64,000 nucleotides of DNA, from positions 8,426 to 72,425 of the forward strand of contig ADNK01000237.1 of assembly GCA_000320545.1 (NCBI GenBank), in the 5' to 3' direction. The notes beneath the pieces were generated by a model. The model saw only the letters and a program-made list of their open reading frames with translations, made no database searches and was not told where the DNA came from. This document shows, piece after piece, positions 1 through 26,998 of the stretch. Origin of the DNA: Bigelowiella natans CCMP2755 (lineage: Eukaryota > Protista > Cercozoa). A program made the translations under genes and the position numbers. The stretch's first letter is position 1, and every line of letters begins with the position of its first letter.

Positions 1-21
1 ACGAAGTATTGTCACAAGCGA

Positions 22-843
22 CTACACCAAATCCCAAAGAGGGTCATCTTCATCTGGAATTTTGTGCTCATTTTTCCTGTCAGTAGCCGGAACCATTGTG
101 CTATCCCTCGTACAGTTCAACGGTTTCGTGAGCAAAGGATTATGACCCGATGTGAGCCTGTTCTCTACATAGTATCTTCTAGCTTTCATTATGCTTGCTT
201 TCGATGGCACCTTCTTCGCCCCCTTATGCTTCCTTCTTTTCGTGATATGTTCGCGAGGAATCATCGTTATGTAAGCTACCAGTCTTGCCAAAGGTTCACT
301 TTCTCTTCCAGGCAATGCTTTTGATACTCCGGCTGAGTAGTCAATGCCTTGAGCACAATGAATAACACGCGAATCCCACATCAGGAAGTCTCCTGGCTTC
401 AACACAGCCTGTTGAGCCTTGCTTAAATACTTGTCATAGTCATCACTCTTAGTGACTTTAACGTAGTCAACCTGTTATGATTGCCGACTAATTCAACCTG
501 CTATCACTTTTGAATGTAAGTGAATGCATATCTTGTTGCATATTTTTTAATTCGAAATGGCATTTAATGATGGTGAAGTATACTTTTGCACGAGACACAG
601 GTCAGTGTGGTCTTTTCCTTTGTTTCTAGGATAATTTTTGTTACTCACCGTATTTTGCCGAACGGACTTTATTGTTCTCGAACCATCGAAGACCTTCTTA
701 AAGTCTTTGTGAGATCCCTTGACAAGAACCGTACTTCCAGTTGCTGCGGTAGCCTCATAGAAGTTCAAAATGCCTTGATACGTTGTAAGTTCAGGATCGC
801 TATAGTAGCTTTGGTCGATGTGAAACCTTTTGTTACATTACTT

Positions 844-887
<44 letters not shown>

Positions 888-1010
888 ATTTTCTTCAGCT
901 ATTATGAAGTTTTCAATCTTAATGGAATCCATTTGTTTCACTTTTTGTCACGGCGTAAATATCGTAAAATAGTACATTCTACGTTTTTGATACGTGTATG
1001 TATGATGATG

Positions 1011-1047
<37 letters not shown>

Positions 1048-2000
1048 CATTTCAGAGTAATTTAAAATTTTAGAAATATACATCGCTCAGAAAAATGGTC
1101 AGGGAGAATTACCATCCGCGTTTCGTAAGCCACGATTTACTTCCGCCTGGAAACCCTTCGGAAAGCATTTGAGTATAATATAGAGCATATTCATCATTTA
1201 TTATACATTTTTTGATTGATTAATTATCGTCCTCTTACATGGATTTCGATAGGCTCCCCAGCCATCAAAAGAAGTAATGAGCTCATTGGAACCCCACACA
1301 CTTTCAAATGCCCTTCGCACGCCAGATATCAACCGACAGTACCACATGAACTTGCTCTGCCCCACCCCAAATTTGGAGCAAACTCCATTTTTTGGGAAAC
1401 TAGAATATGTCGGAAGTGGATTAGTGTGTAATTATAAAAACATCAATACCCCTCGGTAATTATTGAGCTTTGTGTGTACTTAGAACATATCGTTAAAAGA
1501 GAGAAATTACACCAGATTTGGTTCCAATTTCCGTCTCCGAAGCTCTGTGGATCATCTTTACAGATTTTTCCAGGCGAATTTTTAACCCAATCCCAAAAGA
1601 GAGCCTCAGCTTCCTTCAACTCTCCAGACTGTCATGCAAAGTTAGATATCCTAGGGTGAGATGTAAAAACTTCCATTTTTGTGCGTTTGAAGATGACGGA
1701 TATTACCGAAGCCGTGCCCTCAAAAATTACAGCCCCGTACTTCTCCAATGCTGCCAGTGCTTTCTCCGAGAGCTTCTCTTCGTTGATTGATACCCTAGAG
1801 ATCTCTCCTGCTGGAGATCGAGGCAAGGGGCCTGGTCGTTGCTCGCCTAAAAATGAGCTCTCTAATCAGTCTTGCTGTATTCGTCTGCATTCATGAAACG
1901 TGCATTATTTTTCCATAGAGTGTTCAAGCTCCAAGTACGTGATGGCGCATGCATGGCATCTATGTTTATGCGCAAGCTCATTCTCACCCCCGGCCATCAT
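22..2000 (-). CDS. Phytanoyl-CoA dioxygenase (PhyH)-like 2-oxoglutarate/Fe(II) dioxygenase, multi-exon
   Basis: Spliced minus-strand exons give MMAGGEQRPGPLPRSP..., GVGQSKFMWYCR...VWGSNELITSFDG, FHIDQ (HxD)...YQGILNFYEATAATGSTVLVKGSHK and LKPGDFLMWDSRVIHC...RLVAYITMIPR, typical of eukaryotic PhyH-like proteins. First exon inferred at 2000-1988 with a GT donor. Confidence 0.85.
846..884. repeat. (TA)n microsatellite (intronic)
   Basis: Pure TA run seen directly. Confidence 0.95.
1013..1045. repeat. (GT)n microsatellite (intronic)
   Basis: Pure GT run seen directly. Confidence 0.95.
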
Positions 2001-2551
2001 AGCCTGAAACTTTCGGATTATGTGGGAGCTGGTCAAAAGTATTCTCGAGTATTCCAATGGTGTTCCTGGAAATTTCTAGTTAGAACTCTCTGAAAAAAAA
2101 CGGCAGGTCGCTGTGAGCATGTCCATGGATGTTGCAGGATCAAAATTTAGAAAAATTACCTGAATCTTGGTTTCTGATTGAAAACAATGAAAAATCGCGC
2201 TTTTTATGCATGCGACATGCATATTATTGCAGTAACACTAGAAGGATACCGGTATGTGGAAGATTTTTGGCGGGAAGGTCTTTGGGGCACAGAAGGTAGA
2301 TTGACCATGTCGCAGGGAAGGAACATCAAGTGTTTTCCTACCTACTCACATGAGACAACTCAAAATGGAGAACGGGGAAGACATTCCTGGCACTCCCTGT
2401 AAGTAATCCCCCCCCTCCTTGTAATTATGTGAGTCTATAAATGTATTAATTACCAACAACATAACAATAGAAACCCTTACAATTTGGTGGAAATCTAACA
2501 CGTGTATTGTACACAGCAGAGGCAAGGACGCCGACACGAAGAAGTAGACAC

Positions 2552-2949
2552 ATGAAGGAGGTATACCTTTTCAATTAAGAAAGCGAGTTTTGAAATAAAA
2601 ACGTAACATTGGGATATGTCAGGGTGTTCTTAAAGAAGATGGAGAGATTCATGAAGTCCTATCAACGCAATCTTCTGATAAAGGGGATGTTAAGGAGGAC
2701 AACCAAGAGCTCGCTCATTTAAATAAGGTGGAAACAATGGTATTAAAAGTTAACGAAAATCTTGTGAAAATGACCTCGAAGCTGGGAGATATGGAAAGGT
2801 ATTACTTAATTTATAGCACAGCAAATGCTTAGCTGAAAGCTTGTTTATTTAGAGTCATGTCAAACACGGAGATTGTAGTAGATAAATGGCTCGGGATGTG
2901 GCAAACAACACGAAGCAAGGAGAACATCAACCACCCGAACATTCGCTAG
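2552..2949 (+). CDS. DUO1: Small coiled-coil protein, probable DASH/Dam1 complex subunit Duo1-like (93 aa, 3 exons; not in ORF track)
   Basis: Exons 2552-2560, 2623-2798 and 2853-2949 joined by GT-AG introns give an open 93-aa frame containing ELAHLNKVETMVLKVNENLVKMTSKLGDMERVMSNTEIVVDKWLGMWQT. This matches my recollection of the Duo1 core pattern (EL..L.KI...I..V...L.K....M.......N...LLD.W). Family call by eye. Confidence 0.6.
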
Positions 2950-3479
2950 ACTACCAGCAAGAACATTTTGTGCACAGGTGGTGTGGTTTATGTGCACAGA
3001 ACCTTAAAGTAGTTTGCGCAAACTTTAGGCACAGTGTGGATTGTGAAGCGTATACGTTGTGTTTGTTGTGTTCGCTGAAAGCTCATTTTGATTTTTTCAC
3101 ACACTGAACACAATCATTTCGCATCGGCTACCCAGAACCTTCACGCTATGTTGTCCAACCATTGCATGTGCAACGTACAACACGCACAAATTGTGCAGCA
3201 GAAAAGCAGATTCCTTGTGTCCATCACCGCTACTAGGCTAGCTTGGAGCGCACACGGCGATCGATGGATATGCAACATGCACGATGGGAGCAGTCACCGT
3301 TCGCTGTATCACACATGATGCCATGATGTGGCCACTTGCATTGTGTAGACACAGCACACAGTAACAGCATGTGCAATGTGTGTGTAGTATTACATGTCAG
3401 TTGTTTGCTAGCGCTAGCTAGCTTGACATCATCAACACATCTAATCTAGACATGTGAAATGACAACGTGGTTGACAAGT

Positions 3480-4900
3480 GTTGTCATCGGACAACAACGC
3501 ATGATTGACCTGCGCGCTCAGTGCGGACAGCTAGACGTGCAGGCCTAGAGGCTGGCAGGCTAGCAGAGTCACTCTAGCACTACCGCTTCGACGGCTGTGA
3601 GTTGCACAAAACGAAGTGAGCCCCGCTAGCCCGATCGTGAGCGGGTGGAGTGGCATGGGAGTGCATGACGCAGGGCGTCGGCGACCGCGAAATTGCAATT
3701 CACAGCAATTCGCTTCTGCCTGTTGTTGCATGCCTCACGCACGTCTGCTGCGCTCGATCACACTTCAACTGAGCACTGAGCACACACGCTGGCTAGCTGG
3801 TCTGATGTGTGCAGATTGGTCAACTTGAGAAGTTGCGTCATTGTGACACAAATGGATGCATGAATCATCTGACAGCGTGCAGATTGGTCAAGTTGAGAAG
3901 TGCACAATCTCGCAATCAGGAACACGAGTGTGCGCACGCATGCGCATGCCAACAATTGAGCGGCGACGAGGCACTCCGATGCTCAGACACATCGCCCGAA
4001 CAAGTTTGCGCTTCAGTGCCACCCCCGCTCAGAAGCACGCAGCCTGCCTTGACCACGAAGTCAAAGACGATGGCCCAGCTGCGGCCGTTTTGCACGCGAA
4101 TGACGGTCTCAACAACGACGTGCTGCACGCATCACTGCACCGTGCCTGTGGCCGCGCAGAGCCGCCAAAAACTTTTGCAATGAACACTCGCGTGCCAATG
4201 ATGTCTCCCACCGAAAGTGGCAGTGGTGGTGCAACACCGCGCAGCGCGACAAAGTGCGTGCGATGTGAGCCGCGCCTTGTTGTAGCCTTTGTTCCACACC
4301 CTCGTCCGCGCACCTTGCACTTCTGGACAACAAGACTTGCCAGCTTGTTCGCATGCAAGTCCAGACACCACGCACACGTATACACGCACAGCTTGGCAGG
4401 TGACGTGCCGCCTACTTGCAAACTGCGCCACGCATGCGCATGGACACGGTCGGCGGTCTGGGTGTGCAAGTGATGCGTGTGCCAGTGGCAATGAACAATG
4501 ATGAACAATGAACAATGATGATGAACTGCAATGAACAATGATGATGAACCACGTTTCCAAAGTGTCACAAGACATTTGCAGTGTGCGAAACGCAGTGCCT
4601 CGAACTGACTTCAGTGAGGACTGCAACTAGTGAACTAGCAGGTTTTTCAAATTGGAATGATCTGGCTGTGTGCCATTGTGAGACAATGTGTGACTAGCAG
4701 CAACGTGGCGATGGCGCAAGGCATCCACTCTGAGTAGGAACTTCCCAAACGCAATGTCTACACGACGATCCATGTTCAGATCATCCGAAGGAGCACCCAG
4801 TGAAACTTTGGTTTTGATGGAGCCAGGAGCATCAAAGAATGAAGAACAGGCAGGAGAAGCTGGGCCCAGAGCTGCTCTCATGCTCCAAAATGTTGCAAGA
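3480..4900 (-). pseudogene. Degenerate, hypermutated coding-like or mobile-element relic
   Basis: Long Cys/His-rich, Tyr-poor overlapping frames broken by TGA stops, internal direct repeats and extreme TpA depletion. No recognisable intact product. Strand is tentative. Confidence 0.4.
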
Positions 4901-4912
4901 CATTTGCAGTGT
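4556..4912. repeat. 29-bp direct repeats (4556-4584 and 4884-4912) flanking a ~300-bp insert
   Basis: tccaaagtgtcacaagacatttgcagtgt vs tccaaaatgttgcaagacatttgcagtgt; the last 17 bp are identical. Confidence 0.85.
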
Positions 4913-5914
4913 CAAGTCGAATCCAAAGTGAAAAAAAAAATCTCAACGAAAAAAATGCCGGAAAAGTCATGAAAACGATCAATTAGGCGAGTTTGGTGGG
5001 AAAATGCATGCGACTTGCGTGCACAGGAAAGAATTTTTTCAAAAATTTTGCGACCGAGAACCGTGTTTTGGATGGATCGGATTTCCTGATTTCCGGGATT
5101 TCACCTAACACAACTCACACAACTTCTCTCGTGCTCGTGGCGACGAGACAATTTAGAAACCGCATGGGGTACACCTTTCACATAGGGGGGGGATTTTCAG
5201 CAAGACACAACTTTCCAAGAATCATCTACGAAAAGTCGCAAATTCTGACACATTTTCGAATTATTAAAGGAAAATTTGAGAAAATCACCTTAGTTCTTTA
5301 AATGTGATTTACCTGAAATGTGTGACCGATCTGATACTTTTCGCGCCAACCGGACTTTCTGCCATCGGGGATACAATCTTAAATCCCGGCATTCTGTTGG
5401 TTCTAAGGACTTTTCTCCAAACGTCAGCCAGTGGGAGGAGAACATGTGGCTGACATTCTTCCTCGTTGACTGAAACCTCCACAAGTTCACTAGCCCAAGA
5501 GACGTTGACTGAGTTTCCTCCCCCCCCCCTTTTGTCCCTGCATCTTTGTACAGGTTGCATACGAATAATTTACTTTAATATCTTCATAGTGAATGTCTTT
5601 CTGCTAAATTTTAATGCTAATATTTTGGTGGCAAAATAATATGACGGCGGTTTCGGAAGTTTGGACAATTCTCACTCTTATCAATATCCTCTTTGGATGA
5701 AATTGGAATAGATAAATATTTGAATAACTTTTCCAGGCGAATAGGATGCATGGGCAAATCAAGATTCCGGTTCCACCTCGAAAAGTGGTGCCTTCCCGTC
5801 GAACAGGAACTTCGCAAAGGTGTTCTAAAGTAGAAATTTTTGTCCTTGTACATTCGATGATCAAACTGAATTCACACGGAAAATCTAAATATTTAACATG
5901 GACTCTATTGTAGG

Positions 5915-6859
5915 ATGCGAGATATGATTTTTGCTGGGATGGCTCCGAGCATCAGCATACTCCTGACTTCCCCTATTGATGTAGTGAAGGCTCGAATGCA
6001 GGTACATGGAGAGGGAATTAAGGTTAGCTTTCAACGAACAGCCTTCGGAGAACTTCGTGAGCTTTTCCAAAAAGAAGGACTTTCTGGGTGTTATAGAGGC
6101 CTTGGAATATCTATAATGCGAGAGGCATCTTTAAACGTAATGCGCCTCGGCCTATACGATCCCATCATGTCCCTGATGCACACCGGCTACTACGACATGG
6201 CGTCTACAAAGGAAACTGGTTTGCCTCCCTTGTACAAACGGCTGCTATGTGGGAGTATTTGTGGAATTATGGGGTCTGTGGCCTCGAGCCCAATGGAGCT
6301 AATCAAGTGCCGCATGCAGTGTGGCGGGGAAAGCGCTGCCGCGGGTCACAAGTATAAGTATACGAGTGCATATGACGCTTGCACAAAAATAATACGTTCA
6401 GAAGGTGTGAAAGGCCTTTGGAATGGTGCTGAAGTCTTTGTGATGCGCAATGCAATTGGATCTGCGGCGAATCTCAGCACTTTCTCCGCATTTAAGGCAT
6501 ATTTTCTCAATTTTCGTGAAGACTCCGTGCTAGTTGACGTTGCTGCGGGACTGGCATCGGGTTTTGTAACAACCTGTGTAATGTGCCCTCTTGATATGAT
6601 CAAGACACGTCTTCAGAATCAACCAGTAGATGAGCTCACAGGAAAAGGCAGATTGTACCGGCATGGAGGTGATGCAGTAGCGAAGATCGTGAAAAGTGAG
6701 GGAACGTTCGCTTTGTACAAAGGTTTCTCGTCTCTCTTTGTCCGGACTGGCCCTCACTACGTGCTTACGTTCGCAATCTATGGCCTGTTAAAGCGGTGGG
6801 CAAGCAGTAAAGATAACTCTGATGGAGATGTTGGAACTACTGTTAACCATTACTACTAG
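5915..6859 (+). CDS. Mitochondrial carrier (SLC25) protein, OAC1/SLC25A34-35-like
   Basis: Three carrier signatures Px[DE]xx[KR]xR (PIDVVKARMQ, PMELIKCRMQ, PLDMIKTRLQ), plus RLGLYDP and GPHYVLTF motifs resembling oxaloacetate/dicarboxylate carriers. A short upstream exon is possible (acceptor-like tgtag just before the ATG). Confidence 0.92.
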   Translation: MRDMIFAGMAPSISILLTSPIDVVKARMQVHGEGIKVSFQRTAFGELRELFQKEGLSGCYRGLGISIMREASLNVMRLGLYDPIMSLMHTGYYDMASTKETGLPPLYKRLLCGSICGIMGSVASSPMELIKCRMQCGGESAAAGHKYKYTSAYDACTKIIRSEGVKGLWNGAEVFVMRNAIGSAANLSTFSAFKAYFLNFREDSVLVDVAAGLASGFVTTCVMCPLDMIKTRLQNQPVDELTGKGRLYRHGGDAVAKIVKSEGTFALYKGFSSLFVRTGPHYVLTFAIYGLLKRWASSKDNSDGDVGTTVNHYY

Positions 6860-8590
6860 TACGCTGATTCTCCTAAAAAAATCCTAAATAATGAACTGGC
6901 TATGGAAGCCGCCAACCAAATCTCCCTATGCTGGATCGTAAAATGAAAAATATCAAAAATCTATTCTAGTATCTTTGACATGTGTTCTCAAAGCATGCTA
7001 TGCATCGTCTCGGAAAGAAATATGCTATCAGTTCTTCACTCAGAGACATTTCTAATTTTTAATCACGTATCGTTTTCAGCTATTTAAGGAAGTAGTTTTT
7101 TTATTCGATTGGAAATCTATTGCACCTGGACAAATGAAAATTACCTCTTCTCTTGGCACCTTAACAATATAATTACTGGGGAACAGTTAAGGATTACACT
7201 ACATGTACAACTGATATTCATCGTCAGCATCTACAAAGTGATCATGTTTAACTCAACACCGTTATCGTGGCCATTCACCAGCATGCATACTATACAGTAT
7301 ACACATCTAGACTATGACTACTGATATACTTAGTCCGGCGACGTAAATATCTTGTAGCAGCGCGCTATATTGCACTGGCGACAGATTAGACAGCGCTGCA
7401 TATACATTATTAAATGGCCATGCGACATGCAGGGTCCAGCAATAGCGAAGATGCATCTATACGCAGTGGCATCACATTGCTAGATTGCGTATGTGTCGTA
7501 CAAGTGCGCGTGTGTGCAGCGCATGCTTGGTACACATACATTAAACACTAGCACATGCATGGCCGCGGCAACATATGTATATATGGACGCGCACAGTAAA
7601 CATGACAATGCAACGCACGCATTTTCCGTTCTGCTTACGCGCGCCGTTCTGCGCACGATCGACGTGTGCATGATGATCGACTGCCAATGACGCCATGTGG
7701 CTGTGCACGTACAAGCTAGCTTGTTGTCACGTTCTAGCAGAGTTGTGCTGTGGCGCCCGTGTGATCGAGCGGGTGTGCGTGAGAACATGTATGAACCTTA
7801 ATGTGTGAGTACGACGTACTTGCACATCGATGTGTGAAACGCGTACTTCTAGGCTTGCACGTCACACTAGCGCACACTGAGCGCGTCGCTGCCGTCGCTC
7901 TCTTGCTTGTACATCCTACTGCCGCCATGCAGGGACCACACCTAGCACACCCCACATTTCATTTCCCCACATCTAGCACATACTATCGATCGATCGGCAG
8001 TAGCAAAAATTGCGAAAATGAAATATGGGGCATGGTCCATACACACGGCGGCGCTCATATCAGCTCAACAAGGCCATCCATGCAAACTGCGTGCAGCCCA
8101 TGTGCATGCAACTTGAGATGACAAGTACGTCTTCATGATGTGCATCGCATGTGCCATGCATGGCTACATGCATGTCAGCTAGCGTTGCCTATATGCCAGC
8201 ATCGTTGCTACAACTACCAATGCATCGCATGCACATTCAAGGCTAGGTGTGAGCTTTCAGATGTTGTTTACGCTTCCTAGAACCTCTTGCAGAACATCAA
8301 CTAGCGACACATACATACCGTGTGCCACGTGCACGCGTGCACGCGTGTGCGCGTGTCACTTGTTGGATGCATTTGCAAAACGAATGTTCAATGCCTAATC
8401 ACATCACCTGGAATGTCTAGATGTTCACCTCTCATTTCATTTATAATTGGTACAGAAACTTTTATTTTTTCAGCTTCTTGAAATTAACTTCAAATAGTAT
8501 GTACAGAAGACAAACATGGTATCATGCTGTGGTACTACAGTTGACGATGCCTATGTGCCATCTCGCTATACTGCATTTTAACGTTTGCAT

Positions 8591-8901
8591 TCAGCGTGAG
8601 CGCTCTTCGTTATTTGTATGGTTGTTGCTCACCGATAACCCACCATTCACATATCGATGGACACTCGCTGGGATACCAGCGGTCAGGATTGTTTCACGTA
8701 CGTGTGAGTCTGTACTATTATGGCTACGTTCTTTGTGCTTCAGATTCAAACTCTTATTTCCACGGCTGGCTATCAAGCGATTAGAGTTTTCAATTTTGTG
8801 ATCGACCGTTTTTGACGTTGAACTGGAAGAAGATTTGATCTTTGTCTCCCTTTTGAATAAATCAACACGCTCAGAACTATTGAAGCTTTTCAGACTCTTC
8901 G
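8591..8901 (-). pseudogene. Orphan 3'-terminal exon (Ser/Lys/Asn-rich, low complexity) of a gene lacking its 5' part
   Basis: Open frame to a stop at 8591, preceded on the minus strand by a microsatellite-containing intron end (...acacacagagagag...gtacag). No plausible upstream exons or promoter in the 184 bp before the opposite-strand exon. Confidence 0.4.
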
Positions 8902-8906
8902 CTGTA

Positions 8907-8939
<33 letters not shown>

Positions 8940-9029
8940 TGTGTGCGTGTAAGAAAGAGAGAAAGTATGTGTAAATATGTGAGTAGTACAAGAAGGGGTG
9001 ATAAAAAATAATTCATGCCCGGGGAAGAG

Positions 9030-9060
9030 GAACTAACTAAACCCCTGATACCCTAACCCA
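9030..9060. repeat. Short degenerate (CCCTAA)-like telomeric remnant
   Basis: aactaactaaacccctgataccctaaccca; only one perfect CCCTAA unit. Confidence 0.3.
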
Positions 9061-9085
9061 CTTATTCTTCTTTCTCCAATCTCAG

Positions 9086-10312
9086 GGAGTGGAAATAGGC
9101 ACGTGCGTGGACAAGAAGCTAGTGACCGTTTGGCCAACATCGTCATTAGAGCACAGCGACTTCCTATACTTTTCCCGCAACAACACAATCTACAATTCTC
9201 ACGACATCGAGGGATTCCAGCAGTTTTCCTACGACACTGCATGCTCTGCCCGCACTCCCTCATTCTCGGCGCTCACAGTAGATCCCAAGATGCGGCGTCT
9301 CCCTTACGACGCCAGCAGTAGTATCGTCGTCCAATCTGGAGTCGATCCGCGGGCTCTGGTTTGTGGGCCACTGTACCAAGACGTGGACACGCCTCCACCG
9401 ACTAGCAATGGTTGGTTTGCAGCTGTCAACTACAAAGGTGCCTTTGGAAGCAGAAGTTGGCTCGACTTGTGGTCGTTTGTCGCCCAGAATAGTGCCTTGG
9501 AACCTGCGATCCCTTGGGCCTGCAGCACAGCGAACCCAACGGTACTAAGAGGCGAGATCGTGTTTCACCAAGCCCTGATCTGCCCAACAGGAGCAATAGT
9601 CGAAAGCGTAGCTTCCTCAAATCTTTCTTCGACAGCGAGTCCAGCTTTATCAATATCAGGGCAACACTTGTATGCCAAACTCCGCTCAGTGTTAGAGGCA
9701 AAAAACCTTGTTGCGGCAGCAAACATTCGCCTCTCCGTCCAATGCGGGCCGATCACCACGACCGTCGTGTTGGAGATGATATTTAATGGTCCGAGAGAAG
9801 TCGCAACAACTTATGCCGAAAATTTCTCCAACTTCCCGCAGAAGACACTAGGAGAGGAGCTTGTGCTGCTGTATGGTGCCCCTCAAGTATCGATTGCGTT
9901 AGTTGGGGGCCAAAACATACCCGCTCTTCCCACACCGGCGCCGACAAACTACCCTACTCCGTCACCTACGCCGCAACGGGTGAGGGACTCGACCCTTGGG
10001 CAGGTGTACCTAGGGATCACAGTGGCGTTCATGTGCACGATAGCATGCCTCATCATAACGTCCTCCATCATCTGTGTGACAGAGATAAAGAAATCCTCGG
10101 TGAATTTGTATTTAAACATACTCTTCCGAGGTGATTCAAAGCAAATCTCAGTCGAAAGTAGAGAAAGCAAAGAAGAACATACATCAATGGAGAGGTGCGA
10201 TGACAGTTTAATTGGAATGTCCGTATTGAGAAGAAGATGCAGACTCAGTTCTGAGATAGAGCTTCAAGGTATGGCATCGATGAAGTCATCAAATCAACAA
10301 TTTAACATTTAG
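9086..10312 (+). CDS. Large terminal exon of a single-pass membrane protein, apparently 5'-truncated
   Basis: Begins at a polypyrimidine+CAG acceptor (9085). The open frame of ~408 aa has a GWFAAVNYKGAFGSRSWLDLWSF motif, a PTPAPTNYPTPSPTP linker and a TM helix (VYLGITVAFMCTIACLIITSSIICV). Confidence 0.7.
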   Translation, partial: GVEIGTCVDKKLVTVWPTSSLEHSDFLYFSRNNTIYNSHDIEGFQQFSYDTACSARTPSFSALTVDPKMRRLPYDASSSIVVQSGVDPRALVCGPLYQDVDTPPPTSNGWFAAVNYKGAFGSRSWLDLWSFVAQNSALEPAIPWACSTANPTVLRGEIVFHQALICPTGAIVESVASSNLSSTASPALSISGQHLYAKLRSVLEAKNLVAAANIRLSVQCGPITTTVVLEMIFNGPREVATTYAENFSNFPQKTLGEELVLLYGAPQVSIALVGGQNIPALPTPAPTNYPTPSPTPQRVRDSTLGQVYLGITVAFMCTIACLIITSSIICVTEIKKSSVNLYLNILFRGDSKQISVESRESKEEHTSMERCDDSLIGMSVLRRRCRLSSEIELQGMASMKSSNQQFNI

Positions 10313-11159
10313 ATACAGATAGTTGGTCTTTTATTACTTAGTTAATCTAGAATAGTCAATGAGATAGTTTGCTTTCCAAAATTCAAAATGACTATTCTCA
10401 CGTCCGAATCAGCAAAGGTGAAGATTCCACTAAACATTCTGTCAAGCAATTTATTTCATGCGCATGATGAGTCATGCAAAAGCTAGTCGAATCAACGACT
10501 TGGTTTGCAATTTACAATGTATTTGCATGCAGTGCTCCTCAAATCTCCGTTGACTGTGCCGTAATGTGCTGTCTAGATGTGCAGTGTGCATCGCGTATGC
10601 GCATGTTCATGCACAACACTAGCTAGCTAGGATGCCAGTGTAGCCACAGCAGTGTAGTGTATATATTTCCCTAGCGTGACTTGCTTCTGAAAACGTCAAC
10701 CATAGCAAATACAGTGCATGTCACGTTACTTGCATCCGCGTGCATGATGTGCACAAGTGTCTATTACTAGCACGTATTAAGTCCACCAGACACATCTGCT
10801 AGACATCCACATCTAGACATGCATGACATGTATGTGTGCGATGCATGCAAATCTCGATTACATTTTGCTGTCCGCCTGGCTTCTGCCATGTCATGTGATA
10901 CATGATTCTCGCGCATTCCCCCGTTTTGCTGCCCCGAATAGCCATGCAAGGTAGGGCACTGGATCATCTACGTTCTTAATTGAAGACCCATCCGAATTTT
11001 AAAAAATTGTATTGGAAATTTCAAGAAGCAGAAATACAACATAGGTTTCGTAGTTGTTAAAATAATTATACCACACAAACAAAAATGAAATGCGGATCAA
11101 CTACGCTTCTCATAAGTGTTTGCCTTCATCACTCCTTCACACATCGCCTAATCTCCCAG

Positions 11160-11903
11160 CTACGCTTCGATCCCTAAATTTGAAGACGAGAAGTACTCTT
11201 CATCTAATTTCACTGCTTCGATTCGTTCGTCATCATCTGTTTTTTCCTTCATGATGCCTTCAGTTGTCTTAGCTTCGATTTTCGGTGTCGTTTCGGGCAT
11301 GTGTTGTTGCAGGCGACGTAGGAGACATGGTAGCGGGAGAGTAATGCTGAGGGAGCAGAGGATTTGGAAGATGAAAAAGGGATACATCATCTTGATTTCT
11401 CGAAAGAAATCAGTCAGACAACTGTAATCTTCTTCAGATTTTGTCTCGACATCTTTGTACTCTTGCTTCCGAGCAGCTTGTATATTCTTCGTTGCTTCGG
11501 TCGACGAAGATGATAGCTCAGTGCCATTGAAGTTATGCACTGGGTCCTCCATTATAGGGTGTTCAATTACAACAAAAGTCGAAGACATGGTTATAGCTGA
11601 GCAAGTGCGAGGTAGAATTTGCGTTCGTCCGTCGTGTGTGTGTTCGGAATGTGGGCTTCCGATGGATGGACTACGGGCATTTTCTTGTGAAAAAAGATGA
11701 ACACAGCCCACATTTGGACAAAACCCAAGGGATCTTCGCGAAAGAGAAGGCCGCGCACCGGACTTCAACACTTCGTTCTTGGGAGTTTGGAAGTTTGTGA
11801 AGCGAGTGGGGGAAATAAAATGTGCTGGATTTGGAGTTGAAGACAAGATAAAAAATAATGTCGCAATTGAACAGATGCCCGTCAAAATACCAAGGGAGTT
11901 CAT
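11160..11903 (-). CDS. Hypothetical protein with signal peptide + transit-peptide-like N-terminus and one TM helix
   Basis: 247-aa ORF. Hydrophobic N-terminus (LGILTGICSIATLFFILSS) followed by a Ser/Arg-rich segment, an internal hydrophobic stretch (MMYPFFIFQILCSLSITLPL) and an acidic tail. Confidence 0.6.
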   Translation of the reverse strand: MNSLGILTGICSIATLFFILSSTPNPAHFISPTRFTNFQTPKNEVLKSGARPSLSRRSLGFCPNVGCVHLFSQENARSPSIGSPHSEHTHDGRTQILPRTCSAITMSSTFVVIEHPIMEDPVHNFNGTELSSSSTEATKNIQAARKQEYKDVETKSEEDYSCLTDFFREIKMMYPFFIFQILCSLSITLPLPCLLRRLQQHMPETTPKIEAKTTEGIMKEKTDDDERIEAVKLDEEYFSSSNLGIEA

Positions 11904-12226
11904 TAAGCAATTTGCGATGCATTTTCCTTCTGGCGCCGTCCTGTCTGTTGTCTCAGGAAAAATTATAGTCTACAGGAGAATTCATTGTCGCAGTGCATAA
12001 AATGGTAAGAATCATTTTCAGATCTGATGGACACGTGATATCGAAGGTAAATTCAACAAATCTATCTGCAATGTAGTCGTATGTGAAAATTTCCATCCTT
12101 TTTTGGTTTCTGGTATGGCTTGTCGGAAGAAGAGAACAGAGCAGCTGCAACGCAGCCTCGCTTTCCATAGCTCTAGTCAGCCCACCGTCTTGCTGCCCCT
12201 GGGAACGCAGATGACAATGTTAAACG

Positions 12227-13465
12227 ATGAAACTGTTTAAGGGCAAGGTTGTTTTCGTAACCATTTTGAATTTATGAACATGAATAGAATGAATCGGTGG
12301 AAGATCTAGTTAAGAATATCTGCATCGCTAGAATCTGGATGACGCAGACTCCGACGAATTTTCTCGTTCTTAATGTTATTTTTGAATTTCCATAGTATTT
12401 GGATGAATTTAAATGGCCATTCAATTTTGGGGTGTATTTTACAGGTTTTTGTGGTTCTGGGCGCCGATTCGGTGCTCGGGATGGAAGTGATAACGTCGGT
12501 AGCGCCATGGGAGGCCAGGATTGTTGCTGTGGGGGAACACAAGCAAAGGTAGCGTGCGCTAAGTTTGGTTCATGATGTGATATCATAAATTCTTGTCAAT
12601 ATTGATATTTGTTTTCAATCCTCGTTTTTCAGCCTGGATGCCTGCGTGTCTGAAGCCATGAGGTATGGCTCCGAGGCCATATCAGTCCCTTTGGACATGG
12701 TTAAAAAGAAAGATTATGAGGTTAGTTTTTGCTCACTTCTTGACCTCTTGTGTCATTAAATTGATAACGTTGAGCTATACCTGATAGGCGATGCTATCCC
12801 AAGCGCTCCAAGCATATGGCCGTGTAGACTATCTAGTTCTAAATACAGGTACAACAACAATTTTATGTTTCACGATTTTGCCTTTGTCTAGGAAGGCTAA
12901 GCTTGTGTTTCTATTTTCAAGGAAAGGATTTTGCCCCGCCGTTCATGGAGTGGAGTGGTTTGTCGACGGCTCAGAGGTTACCCAAAACGACCGTGATTTT
13001 GGATTTTTTTCAAGTAACCACCGAAATTTCACAATCTTCAGGCTTTTCACTCGTTATCTCACAATGCCAGTCTATGCTATCCAGCTCTGCTTACCCTATC
13101 TCACTAGAAATTCTGGATGTATTATGAACTTTTCATGTTCAAATGAAAACGAGCCACAGCCCTGTTCTGCAACCCTGGAAGCATTTTTGGATAAAATCGA
13201 CGAAGAATTCAGAAGTTCTGGGAGTCGTGTGCATGTTTTAAATGTGCCTGTAGGAAAGTATGATTCGAAGAGACCGAATGAGGGCATGGGCATCATTGCT
13301 CGTTCTGCCGTGAGGGCATTAGCCAGCAAAGTGGCTTCGTCAAGAATAGATTCCAGTTACAGTTTTGGTTTTCGGAATTTTTTGGCAATTATGTATCCAC
13401 AATGGGTCTTTGACATTCTCTACTGCAGATATTGTCGGCGTGGAACAGTAAAAAAGATGCAATAA
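12227..13465 (+). CDS. Divergent short-chain dehydrogenase/reductase (SDR)-like protein, probably catalytically inactive
   Basis: Spliced N-terminus MKLFKGK|VFVVLGADSVLGMEV...ARIVAVG (Rossmann start), then LDACVSEAMRYGSEAISVPLD and YGRVDYLVLNTG. No YxxxK where expected. Confidence 0.75.
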
Positions 13466-13478
13466 CTTCTTACAAAGC

Positions 13479-13620
13479 CAAAACTTGATGCGGCATGAAT
13501 TGCGTAGGACAGAACTTTCGTAGGCGTATTGAGTTCACGTCACAAATGGTATAGACAAAACTTGATGCAGCATGAATTATGTAGGACCAACTTTAGTAGG
13601 CGTATTGGTTTCACATCACA
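13479..13620. repeat. Imperfect tandem duplication (~66-bp copies, period 77)
   Basis: caaaacttgatgc[g/a]gcatgaatt[gc/at]gtaggac...gtaggcgtattg...ttcac[g/a]tcaca at 13479-13544 and 13556-13620. Confidence 0.9.
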
Positions 13621-14328
13621 GTCGTGCAGAACTAGCTAGCTAGAGAGAGACAAAGAAGACGGGAGCAGCTGTGCTGGTGAATTGCATCGAATCGTGACAT
13701 GCTAGCATGCTCGTGTGCAGTCAGCACACGCTAGCATGCACATCTAGACATCTCTAGATCTAGATCTGGACACAAATGCAAATGCACGTGCTAGCGTGGT
13801 CTTCACATAGCAAATGCGAAATTTCAACAACAAATCGAGCTAGCAAGAAAGAACATTATGGCAATAGACACTGTGAATTGGCTACGGTACGTGTTACATT
13901 GAATTTCAACATCAGCACGGAATGAACGTGTGATGTCCGATATCTAGATGTAGCAGCCACAACAATTAACATACAAGCTAGCAAGGCTAGAAGGGGTAAC
14001 AAGCTCCCATCCATCATAATTGCATGTTCACCAAGCACGCGAAACATGTCAAATCACGAAAGTTGCGTTTGCATGGCATTACATTGTGTCAGATGTGCAG
14101 CAGCATTGCTACTATTAGACTAGTATGTGTGTACACGCACATGTCATTTCTTGATAGACCTGTAATGGCATGCATGCACAAAACTGGAACACAATGGACA
14201 CGTAATGTCATTTATATTAGACACGTAACATCATTTATACTTCATATTTCATATGTGTTATATTACTTTATGTCTATCATGAATGTAGTTTCCGCCTGGA
14301 ACGATGCCATTTGCAATGTAAATAGGTA

Positions 14329-16329
14329 TCACATTATTGAACACCCACGTTTGTTTTTAAGTTGAGCAATTTTGGATGCTATTTCCTTTCTTTTCTTAGT
14401 CATTTGGGGCCTATGTAACTCAATAAGCTCGGATTTTACCTGCCGTTAATGACGTCTTAAAGGATCAATTTGACTACATATAAGTATCTGGCATTACACT
14501 TTGAAAAGCTTCTTTAATGTCTCTTCGAGCGACTCCTATTCATTCATTTCATATTATGTTTGTAAAAGAGAATTGGAGAATTAAACAACCAGTGACATCA
14601 AAAATGCTAACTTCCTTCCCCTTCGGAAGCTGCTCCCTAAATTTTGCTTTCAAAAAGCCGAAAGCAGAAGCATAGGAATTGTCTCCTTTGTACTCTGGGA
14701 AACATGTTGAGAGCGATTCAGAGCGGATCATTTGTTCAAATAGATCTTTCTTGTTTAAGAATAGAATTATAGGAACATCCTACGATTGCGGTAAGTATCA
14801 AATACATTGAAAAGCATATTCACAAGCTGAATTACTCGACCCGAAATGTTCTATCATGAGATATTTTTCTGAATAATTCCAAGGACTCAATCATTCTGTT
14901 CTTTTTGCAATCCTCAAATAGAACCTCCAACCAATAACATCACAAAGATGCGTCAGAAAATTATGATATTATCATTCTCATAGATACCTGGCGATATCCA
15001 GCCATGCTAGAAAGGAACAGAACGCATTTTACATCGTCTAATTTTAATGAAATTAGGTGGTCGTCAAGCACAAAATTTGATTTAAGATAAAAGGAAGCTT
15101 CAGCTTACCAAAACAATGTAGCCATTTTTTACGTTCATTTCGTTGCCCACCAACGTCTACCATTTTTATATTCATATATGGAGGCTCCAGATCGTGTTCA
15201 CGTTGGTATCGAGTCTTTAAAAGATCGTTAAAAAAAATCATTGAACGCTAAAATTCGAATTATTTCAATTATTTCTAATACTTTCAAGTCTTTGGAAATT
15301 ATTCCCGTAGTTCGTATTCGCACTCTCAAAATCTGAACCAGAAATTTGAATTGATGCTGAGAGTTAGGACGAGTTTTGCTCCACTGAAAGTGATGCACAC
15401 ATAAATAAACATTTGTACATCTTCCTCGTTTGGTTCAAAGTCTTCTTGAGCGAAACGATCGAGATTCCTCATATAGTATTCGCATGAGTCCAACAACCAA
15501 AACTCAGCCCTGCGTTTGTAGGCCTGCTGGATCGGATCACCTATTCCACATCAAACGTTAAACCTGAACGACTTAGTTTTCTTTCCAATCTCAATGTCAA
15601 CTTTTATATACGGCTTGAAAGTCAGCGGCCTCTGCGGCAGAAAGTTTAATACGTTTTGTACTCCCAGGTTCGTATCGTTCCAAAACATCCTGAATACTTT
15701 CTCAATGAATTTACACATTGGAGATCGAAGAAATTTTACCATAATGCGTGCTGCCTCTCTGGACTCAACCTTCAATCCATAATTATCCAAAGCTTGAAAA
15801 AGAGATCTCATACAGTCCAGTGCATTCTCGTGTAAGCTTGTGATTATATTTTCGACTTGAAATTTCCTGATCTTGTGATTGTGAATGCTTTCTAGTTGTT
15901 TGAGTATAGTACCTTGATAAAGTTTTTCGAGATAAAATGAGATAATTTCTTTAAAATTCGAATCCAAACCAAAATATTTTTTTTATGAAATGATTAATTT
16001 CGATTTCCACGTTTGTACTACTTTTGCCGCTCTCTCCAGCCCCAAGCAGCAAAATCTAATCATCCAATTATCATTGCTCCAAAATTTTCGAAAAATACAA
16101 CAGCTTGCCACGTCACCTTAAAGCTGAAAAGTTGGGCTAATTCGCTTTGAAGGAGATTCTGATCCACGTTTTTGCTCCTAGCCCGCGCTTCCCATTCATC
16201 CTCTTTTTGTGCGACTTGTTCTTGGGTATCTTCCTGGGCATTTCTATCGAAGACCTCATTGAACTTTTTCTCTTCGATGGGTGTATTGTCCTTTGCTTTC
16301 GACTTAGATTTGGAGGATTTGCTTCCCAT
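14329..16329 (-). CDS. Heterotrimeric G-protein alpha subunit, multi-exon
   Basis: MGSKSS myristoylation site; [13 protein letters not shown] (G1), RIRTTGI (G2), [16 protein letters not shown] (G3), LFLNKKDLF (G4). Last exon ends ...KNKRGCSIM*. Confidence 0.95.
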
Positions 16330-16832
16330 TCTACCCTCCTCAGTAAAGGCTGAGAACGTTGATCAATAACAGCTGCTTGGAAGCAAGGTTTTGTAATGTT
16401 GTCTTTTCCCAAGAACCCTACTCGTCTTTTATTTGCGACAAAAGAAATCCGAATATTTGACCCAGACTCCGGAACTGCAGTCGCCAGTTTGTGCTTGCAG
16501 GCAGAACAGACACGGAAACCGTTCCTTTAGGATCGGTTGTTCCAGAAAAATGCACAAAATGGCCTCTACTTCGACACCGATTCCAGGAAATTTTATTTGA
16601 TCCATGATTTCAAGGGGAAATTTTGTTCAAACTCTTCTTTTCAAACTCGAATCCGTAAATACCGGAGATTATTCCTTCTGTTCAACTGAGAGGTACTCGA
16701 ACACCACGAGCAAGAGGGAGTAAGGATCGTAGAGAAAACCTCCGGAATCCCTCCACCTCTCTCCAAACTACGACTATCAGCACGACAGAACAATGGATAA
16801 AATTTTCTAAAAGTAAGCCCACGATATATAGA

Positions 16833-17087
16833 GTGATGAGAAATGTAAGGAGACAAATGACAATATTTCTTTACACCTCTCCTATCGCATTAGTTGGCGC
16901 ATGTTTAGTATTGGGTACCATCATTTTAAGGCAGGAAATTGATGGTGGAAGATATCCTGACGTAATTGACGAGCAGAGAAACAGTTACAGCTTAGTAGGA
17001 GATGCAACTCTTTGGGGATTTATTTTGTGCCTTTTTTTTATCATTTGGGAATCTAGATCTCCTTATCCAAAATGGTGCTGCATCTAA
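16833..17087 (+). CDS. Small hypothetical two-TM membrane protein
   Basis: ~76-84 aa ORF with two hydrophobic segments (IALVGACLVLGTIIL; LWGFILCLFFIIW) and a C-terminal CCI. Sits at the expected partner position of the G-alpha divergent promoter. Start uncertain. Confidence 0.45.
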   Translation: MMRNVRRQMTIFLYTSPIALVGACLVLGTIILRQEIDGGRYPDVIDEQRNSYSLVGDATLWGFILCLFFIIWESRSPYPKWCCI

Positions 17088-17930
17088 ATGTGAAAATCTT
17101 AGAATCTGTCAGCGGCTAGTTATCATGGCATTAATAATACTACACCCCGTCCGCCAACAAAGTAGCGTTCAAATGAATAGCAATGTGCTTCGACAGGGCT
17201 TTCACACAGTTTGTTCCCAAAAGTAGAGATTGAGCAACATCTCAAATGTTGCACCACCATTGTGCGAATCAGTGCTGTGCATGTCTAACTACATGCTCAA
17301 TGTGCATCCAATGCGGCATCATGTTATTGTAGTGATGACATCGCACTTTAGTGGACAGTGATGACAACAGAAACTTCGCACTTTGACCGCCTGTCATTGA
17401 CCACCACATTCAAATCTTGCACCGCGGCGCACAGCAAGAGTGCATTGGTGCTGTTGTTACATGTTCAGTTGTTCTGCACCATGCTAGCATGCGCACTCAT
17501 CACGCTAGAACGTCTGCACAAAAGAATGAAGAAATACCATGCATGGAGAATGTACAAGTGAGAATGATGGACACATAGTAATACCACATATAAACAAAAT
17601 ATATATGATATTACGTTGTCTATTATGAGACGATCATTTGTTGCATGCACGTACCGTTGAGGAACATGAGCGCAAATTCCAAGCTAGCAAGGCTAGAAGG
17701 TGATGCATCAGATGTCAACTGCGTCTAGATGACATCTGTGCACCGGAAGAACTCTATGCGAGTCAAGCTAGACATGCGCACATGGAACATCGATGACGTA
17801 TTTAGCTGAGCAAGTCCATGCAAACTAACGCAATTTGTGCAAGAGCGGTGTTTTCATGGCCGCATCCTGTCCTACTACAACTGTATTACTCGTGAATTTA
17901 TCTAGCCATCTTTTAGCCCTGCTCTTCATT

Positions 17931-19090
17931 CTACGGTTTGTATTCAGGGTCTCCGGGATTACGAGCCTTGTCCAAGGGACTGCGTTTAGCATCCGAGCCA
18001 AAATACCACCCATTCCCACCCAGTTTCCCGAACAAGCAATGCGAAAGAGACACCGTACCTTCCATTGGTGTGAGTTTTGCGCCAAATCCTTTAGTCATAG
18101 CTGTAGCAATGAAGCCAGGGGAACAGCTGCTACTGGTAATATGGGGATGCTTCTTTGCAAGATGCATGGTGTATGCTGTAAGGCCAGCTTTTGAGATCCC
18201 ATATGCAGAAAATCCATCGATCTCACCACCTCCGGCCTTCTTTTCCAATGCAACTATGGTTAAATGATCCTCATTAACTTACTTTGGATAGTAGGAAAAG
18301 AAAGCACAAACGACAACGTCATATGATAATAAGTGATGGATGACAAAGCAAATTGAATGGTGTCCACTCTCTTTGGATGTCCTCATGCTCTAGTAATCTT
18401 GGTGTAACAATTTCAACTCACCAACTTCTTGGATTTGTTCCCAGGTCACGTCAAAGCTAATCAGAGGTGCCTTCTCCTCTTTCGAGACCTTCCCCATTGG
18501 ACTTTTACCCAAACTCCCTTTCATGTATGCAGAGGCAGCACCGCTGCTAACGTTTACGATGCGGCCGTCCTTTTCATCAAGCATGGGAAGAAATGCGTCG
18601 CAAACACGCTTTGGGCCCTCTAGATTGACATTCAGTATCGTCTCCCAGCTTACGCCGTGGCTCAAACCAGCCCCAGCATTATTAACGATACCATAGAATT
18701 TGGTGCCTTTTAACTTCTTCGCAGCTGCTGCAACCTGTATGGGGAGAATAGAATCACATCTTCAAAAAAGGTTTTTGAGGGTGCTGATGAGAGACAACTT
18801 AGTTTTCGCTACCGATTCATCCTTGCCTACATCAAGAACAACAAGCTCCACTTTGGCCTCAGGAAATTCTTTGAGAATCTTAGCCACTGCAGCTTTTCCT
18901 TTGTCCTCGCTACGCGAACAGAGGTACACGTCGCACTTGTGCACGGAAGCGAGCTTCTTACAAAATGCGAACCCAATCCCAGCGTTGCCTACAGATTCAT
19001 GAAAAAGTCGTATCTTAGACTTTGCCTCGATACCCCCTCCCTTTGAAAAGGATTGTGCATACCTCCAGTTACGAGTACTTTTTTGGCCAT
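17931..19090 (-). CDS. Carbonyl reductase-like classical SDR
   Basis: MAKKVLVTG|GNAGIG (TGxxxGxG), [20 protein letters not shown] (YxxxK) and PGFIATAMT motifs across spliced exons. Confidence 0.92.
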
Positions 19091-19546
19091 GGCTCCGATC
19101 GGATATTGTTTATCCGGCCCTCGCTGCTGCTACTTCGTACGGTCGGATAGGATATTTTTCGATGTTTTTATCATCATTATCATCGTCATCGTCATAATCA
19201 TCATCACCGATATGAAAATAATGAAATATTTATACCTGCATCAAATTTAAATACTTAGTAGTTTTCAGTGTTTTTTTTAATCTAAATGTGAATTGGGAGT
19301 GCCGGAACACAGGGTCATGTATTTTGTATGTCTCAGCGAGAAAACGACGAGATTTTATTTTTTTCAAACTTTTTCCTTCGTGTTGAAGTGCAACATAATT
19401 CAAAACAGGAAAGCCCCCGCGTGGCGCTACTGGGTTGGAAGATATTACGTAATGTCTTAGATTTTTATAAAACGACATCATTCATTAAGGATAACCGATC
19501 AAAATCGGCATCAACTTGTTTTGTCGCGAGAGCATAAATCAAAGCC

Positions 19547-21435
19547 ATGGCCAGTGCAGGTCGAACCCCCCCCTTTACCTTGTGATCGTCTCACAGAAGG
19601 CGGCAATGGGTCGATGAATTCGTTATGTTTCATAGTAAGTAATTAGCACTCATTGCACCAATCTTGTAAAGTAAGAAGGGTGGTTTGGGTTGTGTAGACC
19701 AATAAACACATTCGAGCTTGTTATTGCAGGCGGACACGTTTTAACCCCATGCCTGACGGCAAGGCAAAAGCGCATCTTGGAGGCCATTAACAGTTACCTA
19801 TTCTCTAAAAAAAGATCCTTCGACTGTCTGAAATTAAACCTAAAACTTGACAATGACCTGTAGGTGCTAAGAAGGTGCAGATGGAGTCACTGGTTGTGAC
19901 TGAAGTGGTGGAAGCTCCCAGAGGCGTTACCATCGAAAAACTTAGAGCAAGTGTATCTATGTCTCTTAAATCCTTTTCCAGTCTTAGAGTAACGTATGGG
20001 AAGGGTGATGGCAAAATCAGTGTGTTGCCAATGGAACAGGTGTTGTTACCAGCAAATTCAACACATACTCGTACACACCACACCATGACTTCCTGCATGA
20101 ATCCGCATTAGTATACACATAAAGCCAAGGATGATGCACCAAACACCCAAGTCATTTATGGTTTGGCATTCCACCTTAGATTAATATCTCAAGCATCGTA
20201 ACAGTTGCGACGTCTGCAAGCGGGCCCTCACAGCAGAAGGAGGATGAAGCTCCCCTAGACCCCTCTTCTGGCAAGCTATTTACTCTCTGCCTTATCAAGG
20301 GGTCCTCATCTATGGGAATGAGCTGCCTCAGGATGTGTGGGACAGGAAACGACGACGGGGGCCAGGTCCAGAAGCTGAAACTACGCGTACACTCTATTGC
20401 CGCCGACTACGCATCCGTGAGGATCTTCTTGTTGGCTGTTCTCTCAAACCTCTCAGCTTCGAACGAGGGGATATCTGCTTTTGGGGGTATGGGGGGGGCA
20501 AAGGCTGAGGACCTGTGGAAGGTTGCAGCTAAGGAGAGCAATATAATTGCTGCCGCGGATAAGGGTGAGTCGAAGGAGCTCAAGTATTGGTCATCTGTGA
20601 TCGATGATACTGCCCCTGTCGTGCAGCTCAACGCTGACTTGTCGCGGCCTCTGGAAAAGTCTTTAATCGCCCGTCGCGTCGCGGAAATGGTGCCCCCTGA
20701 GCTCGCCGCTAAAGTCGATGCCTTGGCCAAAGAAGTACTAGGTGGCGACCATCACAGCGCCCGCATGGCGGTCTACGCGGCAGCCTTTGCGGTGCTGATA
20801 TACAGGCGTTCTCTTGAAGAGGTAAGGAAGGTTGAGCCTATATTTGATGTATCGAATACTAACACGTACACCCGAGTGAGTGATCTCTCTGTAGCTTGCT
20901 TTACATAAAAATGTTGCGACTACCTGAGGTGCCATTTGCCATTGTGTGCTGCATAAAAAATAAATGCTATGAGCTGACAATCGACAAACCACCCGATTTT
21001 TGTCGTGTGTTTAATGTGCGTGTTGTGTGTGTGTGTGTGTGTGTGTGTGTACGCATTGGTATTTGAAAAGGATTTGGTGATATCGACGTGCCTGGATCCT
21101 CGGAGTAGCAGCAGTTCCTCCTCTTCCTCAGCATCATCATCAGCTGAAGGTGTTTTTGGTCCGTTGTCACAGCAAGCATACCTTCGCATTGCAGTGGAAG
21201 ATAACAAATCATTCGAGGTGCTCGCCAAGGCAGTCGCCAAAAGACTTGAGGAGGCCAAGAAAAACCTGGTGATTGCATTAGGGAGAAATATCATAGTATC
21301 GCTGAAAGGAATGATGATGACGATGATGATGATGACCCAAGATATTTACCTCAACTATGAAAAAGGCAAACATTGCTACAAATAAATACCGTTGCATTTG
21401 TCTTTTTAAATCGTGGGGGTTCCATTTTTGTTACA

Positions 21436-21469
<34 letters not shown>

Positions 21470-21785
21470 ACATACAACACACCAACCAGGGACTGCCTTT
21501 CGAGGAGATCGCACAAAAGCTGCTCGAGAGCGACGAAAAGGCCGCAATGCTCCCTGAGGACTCTCGTTTCTCACCCGTCGAGTTCGTCATGGACAAGTAA
21601 GATCTGGCTGTGCTGTCTCTTCGCCATCGCCCTTGCGATTTTAGCAGCAGCAACAGCAGCCATTTGGAAATTTCATTCCATTATCGAAACCAAAAGAAGT
21701 GAATAATGCTCTTGAATGAATAAGCTAATTCCCCCAGTTCTCATGGCGATTACCCCAACCTCCCTATCCACCTAATCCTTCGCTT

Positions 21786-21821
<36 letters not shown>

Positions 21822-26859: not shown

Positions 26860-26998
26860 GCGAGACCAACGCGAATAAGGCAGTATATATTGCAGGCGTT
26901 GCGTATCCTAAGTATCATTGAGTCTACTGGCTCTCGTTTATGACGTACATGAGGCCATTACACATAGCCATGCTGACATAATTCATAGCTAAATGTAA

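Follow-up and report, generated by a model that had tools for sequence, protein, structure and literature searches.

Genes and repeats at the locus

The window, a 64,000-nucleotide stretch of Bigelowiella natans CCMP2755 (assembly GCA_000320545.1, contig ADNK01000237.1, positions 8,426 to 72,425), is intron-bearing eukaryotic DNA with mitochondrial carrier, NRPS-like and rhodanese-domain genes. The exact mitochondrial carrier protein is present in EukProt, and its nearest named relatives are found in Amorphochlora (69% identity) and in Gymnochlora, Lotharella and Norrisiella (60–68%). The NRPS-like gene (20180–26860) is split by introns and encodes adenylation, carrier and reductase domains together with a weak condensation match; we take it to resemble Lys2-type or carboxylic-acid reductases. 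The rhodanese/UPF0176 protein (57431–59242, minus strand), presumably TrhO-like, is encoded without introns, and its N-terminal extension resembles a bipartite plastid-targeting sequence. Two intron-split open reading frames (ORFs) on the minus strand, 14549–16362 and 17931–19109, appear by eye to be G-protein alpha subunit-like and short-chain dehydrogenase-like. A 52-nt GT–AG intron supported by spliced reads (2799–2850) precedes the last exon of a plus-strand gene, which ends at ~2880, just within the first of the patches described below (Table 1). Positions 1–20000 are AT-richer, with compact genes, and hold all five patches; positions 20001–64000 are GC-richer, with many intronic microsatellites that include long intact (TA)n runs, and hold no extended patch.

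Table 1 Features of the TpA-depleted locus and its surroundings. P1–P5 are the patches carrying the signature; their borders were set by eye on the CA+TG profile, without use of CTAG.
Feature	Position	Strand	Description
TpA-depleted, CpA/TpG-rich core	3481–4560	.	11 TA, 6 in CTAG; from dinucleotide ratios
P1, whole signature	2860–4900	.	ρ(CA+TG) 1.3–2.0 per 300 bp; TA almost gone in 3600–4990
P1a	2860–3480	.	Single-copy, directly 3′ of plus-strand gene; CTAG-rich; TA depleted less
P2	7200–8450	.	CTAG at 14 of 20 CYRG sites; 3′ of mitochondrial carrier gene
P3	10400–10950	.	CTAG at 9 of 12 CYRG sites; convergent ORFs on both sides
P4	13480–14300	.	CTAG at 14 of 18 CYRG sites; convergent ORFs on both sides
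P5	17100–17850	.	CTAG at 7 of 8 CYRG sites; flanking ORFs apparently convergent
Mitochondrial carrier gene (PF00153)	5915–6859	+	Host gene flanking patches; TA content normal
Internal direct repeat	3807–3904	+	Two copies of ~30 bp, 68 bp apart; from alignment
Low-copy repeat	4022–4243	.	Few divergent paralogous contigs; no recognized protein family
A-rich simple-repeat tail	4490–4549	-	Common to paralogous copies; putative 3′ tail of retroposon-like element
High-copy core of element	4530–4625	-	587 (run X8) and 581 (run X11) contigs, placed on 136 bases; summed depth is not copy number
Lower-copy continuation of element	4625–4925	-	Depth drops with distance from tail; from contig depth

The stretch 3481–4560 is a nest of repeats, an ordinary repeat relic, and the location in repeat relics that had been proposed from the sequence alone is borne out by paralogous copies at 4022–4243 and 4490–4925. 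Fourteen DNA runs from one organism contain 96–97% of the words of 2600–6900; six marine RNA runs with small shares lie outside the analysis. Contigs and reads placed at 80% likeness give single-copy depth across most of 1–19000. The core motif recurs in degenerate form at ~4883–4921. The drop in depth away from the tail is what would be expected of 5′-truncated copies, and RNA reads of the repeat family (run X21) are almost all on the minus strand, the first mate of this library being the sense strand as judged from the spliced plus-strand gene that ends near 2880. The anatomy of 4490–4925 would thus fit the 3′ end of a 5′-truncated non-LTR retroposon on the minus strand. Like the 3′ ends of LINEs and SINEs, it has a simple-repeat tail, a steep fall in copy depth from the tail and sense-strand RNA; unlike them, it has no reverse transcriptase (Pfam, six frames of 2860–4961), tRNA-like head (Rfam, none near threshold) or target-site duplication identified here. 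The reverse transcriptase and the tRNA-like/Pol III parts may lie outside this truncated copy. A word at 4600–4612 (minus strand), which we judge to be B-box-like against the Pol III consensus, sits where the high-copy core varies least; Rfam gives no tRNA-like match. Two sub-threshold snoRNA matches in Rfam were rejected.

Open frames occur in the relic because TAA and TAG have been lost. Four of its ORFs and the six read-through frames of 2860–4961 have no Pfam match, and seven ORFs have no PHROG match below E 0.07. The best score in an Atlas comparison of one ORF, 0.83, is at chance level, and a degenerate pattern derived from the repeat core matches neither viral nor metagenome contigs.

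Depletion of TpA

Eleven TpA dinucleotides occur in 3481–4560 (1,080 bp), at 3532, 3546, 3561, 3575, 3581, 3627, 3794, 4283, 4379, 4381 and 4413, against 51.2 ± 5.5 expected and a minimum of 31 in 5,000 base shuffles. Six lie in CTAG, two in CTAC, one in GTAG and two in GTAT/ATAC. The sequence-only reading had counted 11 TpA, six of them in CTAG and three in CTAC or GTAG, and none in ~3796–4282; the recount is exact, with no TA in 3795–4282. No other stretch of the window is free of TA for so long (489 bp, against 225 bp for the runner-up). The ρ(TA) of 0.21 is also the lowest in the window: across 997 windows of equal length outside the patch it goes no lower than 0.47 and has its median at 0.76. 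Seven ORFs of similar GC (48–61%) range from 0.52 to 0.80, all above 0.21. CpA and TpG are abundant (ρ(CA+TG) 1.71) and CpG is normal (ρ(CG) 0.99), which agrees with the earlier description of a pattern opposite to that of RIP or 5mC decay. The TpA depletion of 3481–4560 is confirmed as a real and striking feature, but the extent first given to it was too small: the depleted zone runs to ~4990, the signature begins at ~2860 and four further patches carry it.

These further patches, P2–P5, are high in CA/TG and in CTAG, yet their overall TA is hardly depleted (ρ(TA) 0.7–1.1 per kb). In P1a, the TA share is 0.08 at sites without a flanking 5′ C or 3′ G, and the CTAG share is 0.78. The density of YR steps in P2–P5 is 0.30–0.33 per bp, compared with 0.24 in the background, which is more than transitions can create, so the ancestral composition of these patches must have differed from the background used here. 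All five patches, the first being represented by P1a, sit 3′ of gene ends, and P3, P4 and probably also P5 lie between convergent genes. RNA reads (run X21) pile up on or beside the five patches and leave gene bodies almost bare. The DNA that carries the signature may be 3′ UTR or terminator DNA.

A single element behind all patches was considered and rejected, with blastn giving only one weak inverted similarity of 68 bp (14214–14280 and 17564–17626). Transition-tolerant alignments gave composition-driven scores throughout, except for a short identical stretch of little over 20 bp with two CTAG, shared by P4 (~13971–13994) and P5 (~17678–17701).

Direction of the change

Where YR sites of P1 have neither a 5′ C nor a 3′ G beside them, TA has a share of 0.03 instead of the 0.22 of the background, and CA+TG one of 0.76 instead of 0.56. 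Because the CG share is unchanged (0.21–0.22), the loss of TA equals the gain of CA and TG. Paralogous copies provide a second view. In run X8, transitions account for 125 of the 167 variable places. Among the paralogues, variation affects both letters of nine YR sites, seven in the placement on the high-copy core and two more in the wider one. A surplus that must be TA is seen at seven of the nine, although three of the seven residues are only 0.01–0.02, within the noise of contig-depth weighting, depth not being copy count. The residue is clear at 4550 (0.24–0.27), 4606 (0.12–0.14), 4612 (0.04) and 4746 (0.15–0.48); the surplus at 4801 is ~0, and that at 4566 (−0.02) is confounded by two transversion alleles. 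The four sites with a clear residue are those with a 5′ C or a 3′ G, keeping 0.04–0.48 TA, whereas the five without keep at most 0.02 (Fisher p = 0.008, with the threshold set post hoc). As judged from contig depths, the polymorphism among paralogues supports the direction that had been proposed, TA to TG/CA, in that TA rather than CG is left at seven of nine doubly variable sites, though clearly so only where a 5′ C or a 3′ G adjoins.

RNA reads are richer in TA than DNA contigs at six of seven such sites in the region of the high-copy core (0.46 versus 0.12–0.14 at 4606), the exception being 4566; more TA in RNA would be expected if expressed copies are less edited, in a comparison where strain and method also differ. 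The loss of TA is neither the sole nor the commonest change: among the 40 listed of 189 paralogue differences, 13 are CG↔TG/CA, five are single TA↔CA/TG changes (one of them confounded) and six form three TG↔CA pairs. As to ongoing mutation at the locus, the long single-copy contigs listed (runs X1, X8 and X11) show 0 differences from the window, where few TA targets are left and the comparison has little power.

The tail at 4490–4549 had been taken to polarize the change, on the ground that it becomes a plain microsatellite when TG and CA are reverted to TA. The repeat is real, and the raw counts (all 12 G fall in TG, and five of the seven C in CA) are suggestive, but the tail is shared by the family, so that its reversion is weak evidence and no independent polarization.

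Retention and excess of CTAG

Within 3481–4560, TA is retained in CTAG with an odds ratio of 29 (p = 8 × 10−6), compared with 0.99 in the remainder of the window. Of the 90 CYRG sites in the five patches, 60 are CTAG (background 0.24, p = 9 × 10−18) and only 2 are CCGG (background 0.155, p = 1 × 10−4). In the background, the TA share is indifferent to the flanks, being 0.24, 0.22 and 0.22 at sites with two, one or no flank. The corresponding shares are 0.50, 0.10 and 0.03 in P1, and 0.70–0.88, 0.17–0.33 and 0.13–0.16 in P2–P5, and the flank effect is significant in each of the five patches separately. The TA share of CYRG sites is 0.38–0.40 in 3481–4900, compared with 0.70–0.88 in the other patches. 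As CTAG is down to ~0.4 where other TA has vanished, it is slowed and not immune.

These numbers modify the sequence-only reading. A change of TpA 'blocked' by a 5′ C or 3′ G is upheld as a flank effect in all five patches, but 'block' is too strong a word for a context in which CTAG is eroded. CTAG is indeed retained; it is also enriched far above background, beyond what sparing can give if the DNA began like the rest of the window.

A four-state kinetic model was fitted from a start of background composition, an assumption that the high YR density of the patches puts in doubt. Models without a C→T inflow, in which CTAG is merely spared, were rejected (deviance 94–109), as was a model with no block at all (143); a block by the 3′ G alone (46) or by the 5′ C alone (67) fitted poorly. 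A plain block of the palindrome was accepted (14.2), and an 11-fold C→T hotspot at CYRG without any block did about as well (15.9). A full palindrome block with a partial single-flank block reached 7.2, and a partial block per flank with a CYRG hotspot reached 2.3, the best models having six parameters for seven degrees of freedom and being nearly saturated. Under a background-like ancestor, a C→T inflow into CTAG would thus be required, to which simple models would have to add either a slower loss of TA or a hotspot for C→T.

The flank protection itself is probably real. A different account, possible but at well under even odds, keeps the TpA process and leaves CTAG unprotected: a C→T hotspot acting on the inner C in CCGG/CCAG, for example through context-specific 5mC, would generate CTAG in excess, or CTAG would be a selected motif. 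The excess of CTAG over sparing levels, the near absence of CCGG and the fit of the hotspot model without a block are all in its favour, as is site 4077, where the window has CCAG and 90% of paralogue depth has CCGG. B. natans is also reported, in the excerpted text of 10.1101/2021.06.11.447926, to encode DNMT6. However, sites with one flank retain more TA than unflanked sites (0.18 versus 0.11, all patches), the addition of a partial block lowers the deviance to the minimum given above, paralogues keep TA residues at CTAC, CTAA and TTAG besides CTAG, and the literature holds no chlorarachniophyte methylome among the matches listed.

Relation to known hypermutation

The sequence-only reading knew of no described system with TpA specificity. 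This is overturned by a study of mutation-accumulation lines of B. natans, in which 231 of 302 nuclear point mutations fall within two virus-derived regions and all but one of the 231 are A/T→G/C changes on TpA that give TpG or CpA (Mettrop et al., bioRxiv 10.64898/2026.01.13.699255). The same preprint reports TpA-poor, CpA/TpG-rich transposon-related genes and unannotated DNA in 124 genomic clusters, proposes an ADAT2-like adenine deaminase as a candidate and draws the analogy with RIP as a genome defence. Its cut-offs for a window are ρ(TA) ≤ 0.43 and ρ(CA+TG) ≥ 1.52, and a cluster is three or more successive 1-kb windows. Both 3481–4560 (0.21 and 1.71) and the tile 4001–5000 (0.18 and 1.64) lie within these cut-offs; the patch falls short of a cluster, as one of the 64 1-kb tiles qualifies, the neighbouring tile 3001–4000 having a ρ(TA) of 0.50.

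The hypermutation described there and the depletion seen here share lineage, dinucleotide, direction and long-term footprint (low TpA, high CpA+TpG), and are very probably the same process. They differ in that the process was active there only in two virus-derived regions, whereas here the footprint lies in a retroposon-like repeat and in short intergenic patches. The main text of the preprint mentions no CTAG, tetranucleotide, trinucleotide, flanking base or context and no C→T inflow, and the CTAG rule is undescribed among the matches listed in a literature search on TpA depletion, CTAG and hypermutation. The TpA process is therefore known; what seems new is the CTAG rule, together with the opposing C→T flow and the polarized evidence that a retroposon-like family provides.

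Other systems resemble it in part. RIP of fungi is likewise a repeat-directed, dinucleotide-specific transition mutagenesis of both strands and a proposed genome defence, but it turns C into T and creates TpA, the opposite of what is seen here. RIP prefers CpA. CpG methylation decay would deplete CpG, and here only CCGG is depleted. Hyper-editing by ADAR and APOBEC resembles the present case as a context-specific deamination of parasitic sequences (viruses and retroelements), but the substrate of ADAR is dsRNA and APOBEC makes C→T changes. ADAR prefers a 3′ G (UAG), the context best retained here. It also favours a 5′ U (bioRxiv 10.64898/2026.01.13.699255). Enzymes of the ADAT2/TadA family acting on DNA could in principle supply both flows, one enzyme serving A and C: amphioxus BjADAT2 is reported to make A-to-I and C-to-U edits on DNA, with a preference for GAA and TCG (PMC10354150, in excerpt), motifs unlike TpA or CCRG. 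The excerpted text of PMC10960570 gives no sequence context for TadA. The ADAT2 family is a plausible candidate whose motif is unmatched.

Model and alternatives

We propose that the near-total loss of TpA in this repeat nest most likely arose through the TpA→TpG/CpA hypermutation of B. natans, a reading to which we assign a probability of roughly 0.78. Observed in its support are the loss of TpA with an equal gain of CA/TG, the repeated state of the DNA, the TA left among paralogues and the excess of CTAG. The predicted editor would be an adenine deaminase of the host, directed at repeat or foreign DNA and working more slowly where a 5′ C or a 3′ G adjoins the TpA; as regards a foreign or viral origin, the target is repeated DNA without a match in Pfam, PHROG, Atlas or viral contigs. 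Repeats would be marked as heterochromatin or as foreign DNA, and deamination would then turn the A of TpA into inosine on either strand; inosine is read as G in copying, so that TpA becomes TG or CA. The rate would drop by about half with each C or G at a flank, so that CTAG would be slowest, and an opposing C→T flow (CCGG→CCAG/CTGG→CTAG), possibly through cytosine methylation, would refill CTAG as the end state. A single heterochromatin state, with H3K9me3 and H3K27me3, is reported on transposons and repressed genes of B. natans (10.1101/2025.03.17.643675, in excerpt).

As a fuller form of this model, we tentatively suggest two opposed mutators in chlorarachniophyte repeats, a TpA editor slowed by C/G flanks and nearly stopped at CTAG, and a C→T process focused on CCRG, which together would drive old repeats to a CTAG end state. 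The editor would nearly stop at CTAG perhaps because the palindrome carries a shielding DNA mark.

Adenine deamination has a slightly better than even chance of being the chemistry. Modification of the T of TpA (oxidation to hmU or formyl-U, base-J-like), leading to T→C, would leave the same footprint, since TpA is self-complementary and the two routes should have identical double-stranded outcomes; the strand asymmetry after a 5′ C (TG 140 versus CA 118) is not significant (p = 0.26). We consider this thymine route unlikely. Thymine marks (hmU, fU and base-J-like) are normally not strongly mutagenic, which counts against it. The preprint, for its part, points to an ADAT2-like candidate and favours deamination (bioRxiv 10.64898/2026.01.13.699255).

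The composition might also be inherited, if the elements came or amplified in a TA-poor form, for instance under selection to escape the editor, with little editing of this copy at its present site. Across ~580 contigs, 8 of the 23 YR sites of the high-copy core (seven CA/TG and one CG) have no transition variant at 1% among the rows listed, which are 40 of 55, with at most two further transition rows in run X8. The family master was therefore itself largely TA-free, and much of the depletion may be inherited; the tail unit, too, is common to other copies. Such an origin of the whole signature is nevertheless quite doubtful: several sites still segregate TA, TG and CA, single-copy patches that, one short identical stretch apart, are not homologous to one another also carry the signature, and an editor would still be needed at an earlier stage.

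Ordinary 5mC decay (CG to TG/CA) together with a general genomic avoidance of TpA, with no special process, is very improbable and as a sole cause largely refuted, for although CG↔TG/CA changes are frequent among the listed paralogue differences and CCGG is depleted, CpG stands at its expected level while TpA lies below all control windows and the seven ORFs, CpG decay does not remove TA, and all six CG-polymorphic sites of the high-copy core carry either CA or TG but not the two together, whereas TA is what remains at sites where the two products coexist.

The preferred process, editing of TpA, amounts to an 'inverse RIP' for which the enzyme is only a candidate, and the CTAG rule is a clue to that enzyme. 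Together with the opposing C→T flow, the rule would narrow the candidates, as the amphioxus ADAT2 motif is mismatched and the ADAR motif is spared. The CTAG statistic would also sharpen the signature for old targets, including patches in which TA is no longer low, and for other rhizarians. If true, the reading with two mutators would give the recognition code of a eukaryotic DNA editor, would extend the targets of that editor from viruses to retroposons and gene-proximal intergenic DNA, and would suggest masters already stripped of TA, and thereby out of its reach, as the source from which active elements multiply.
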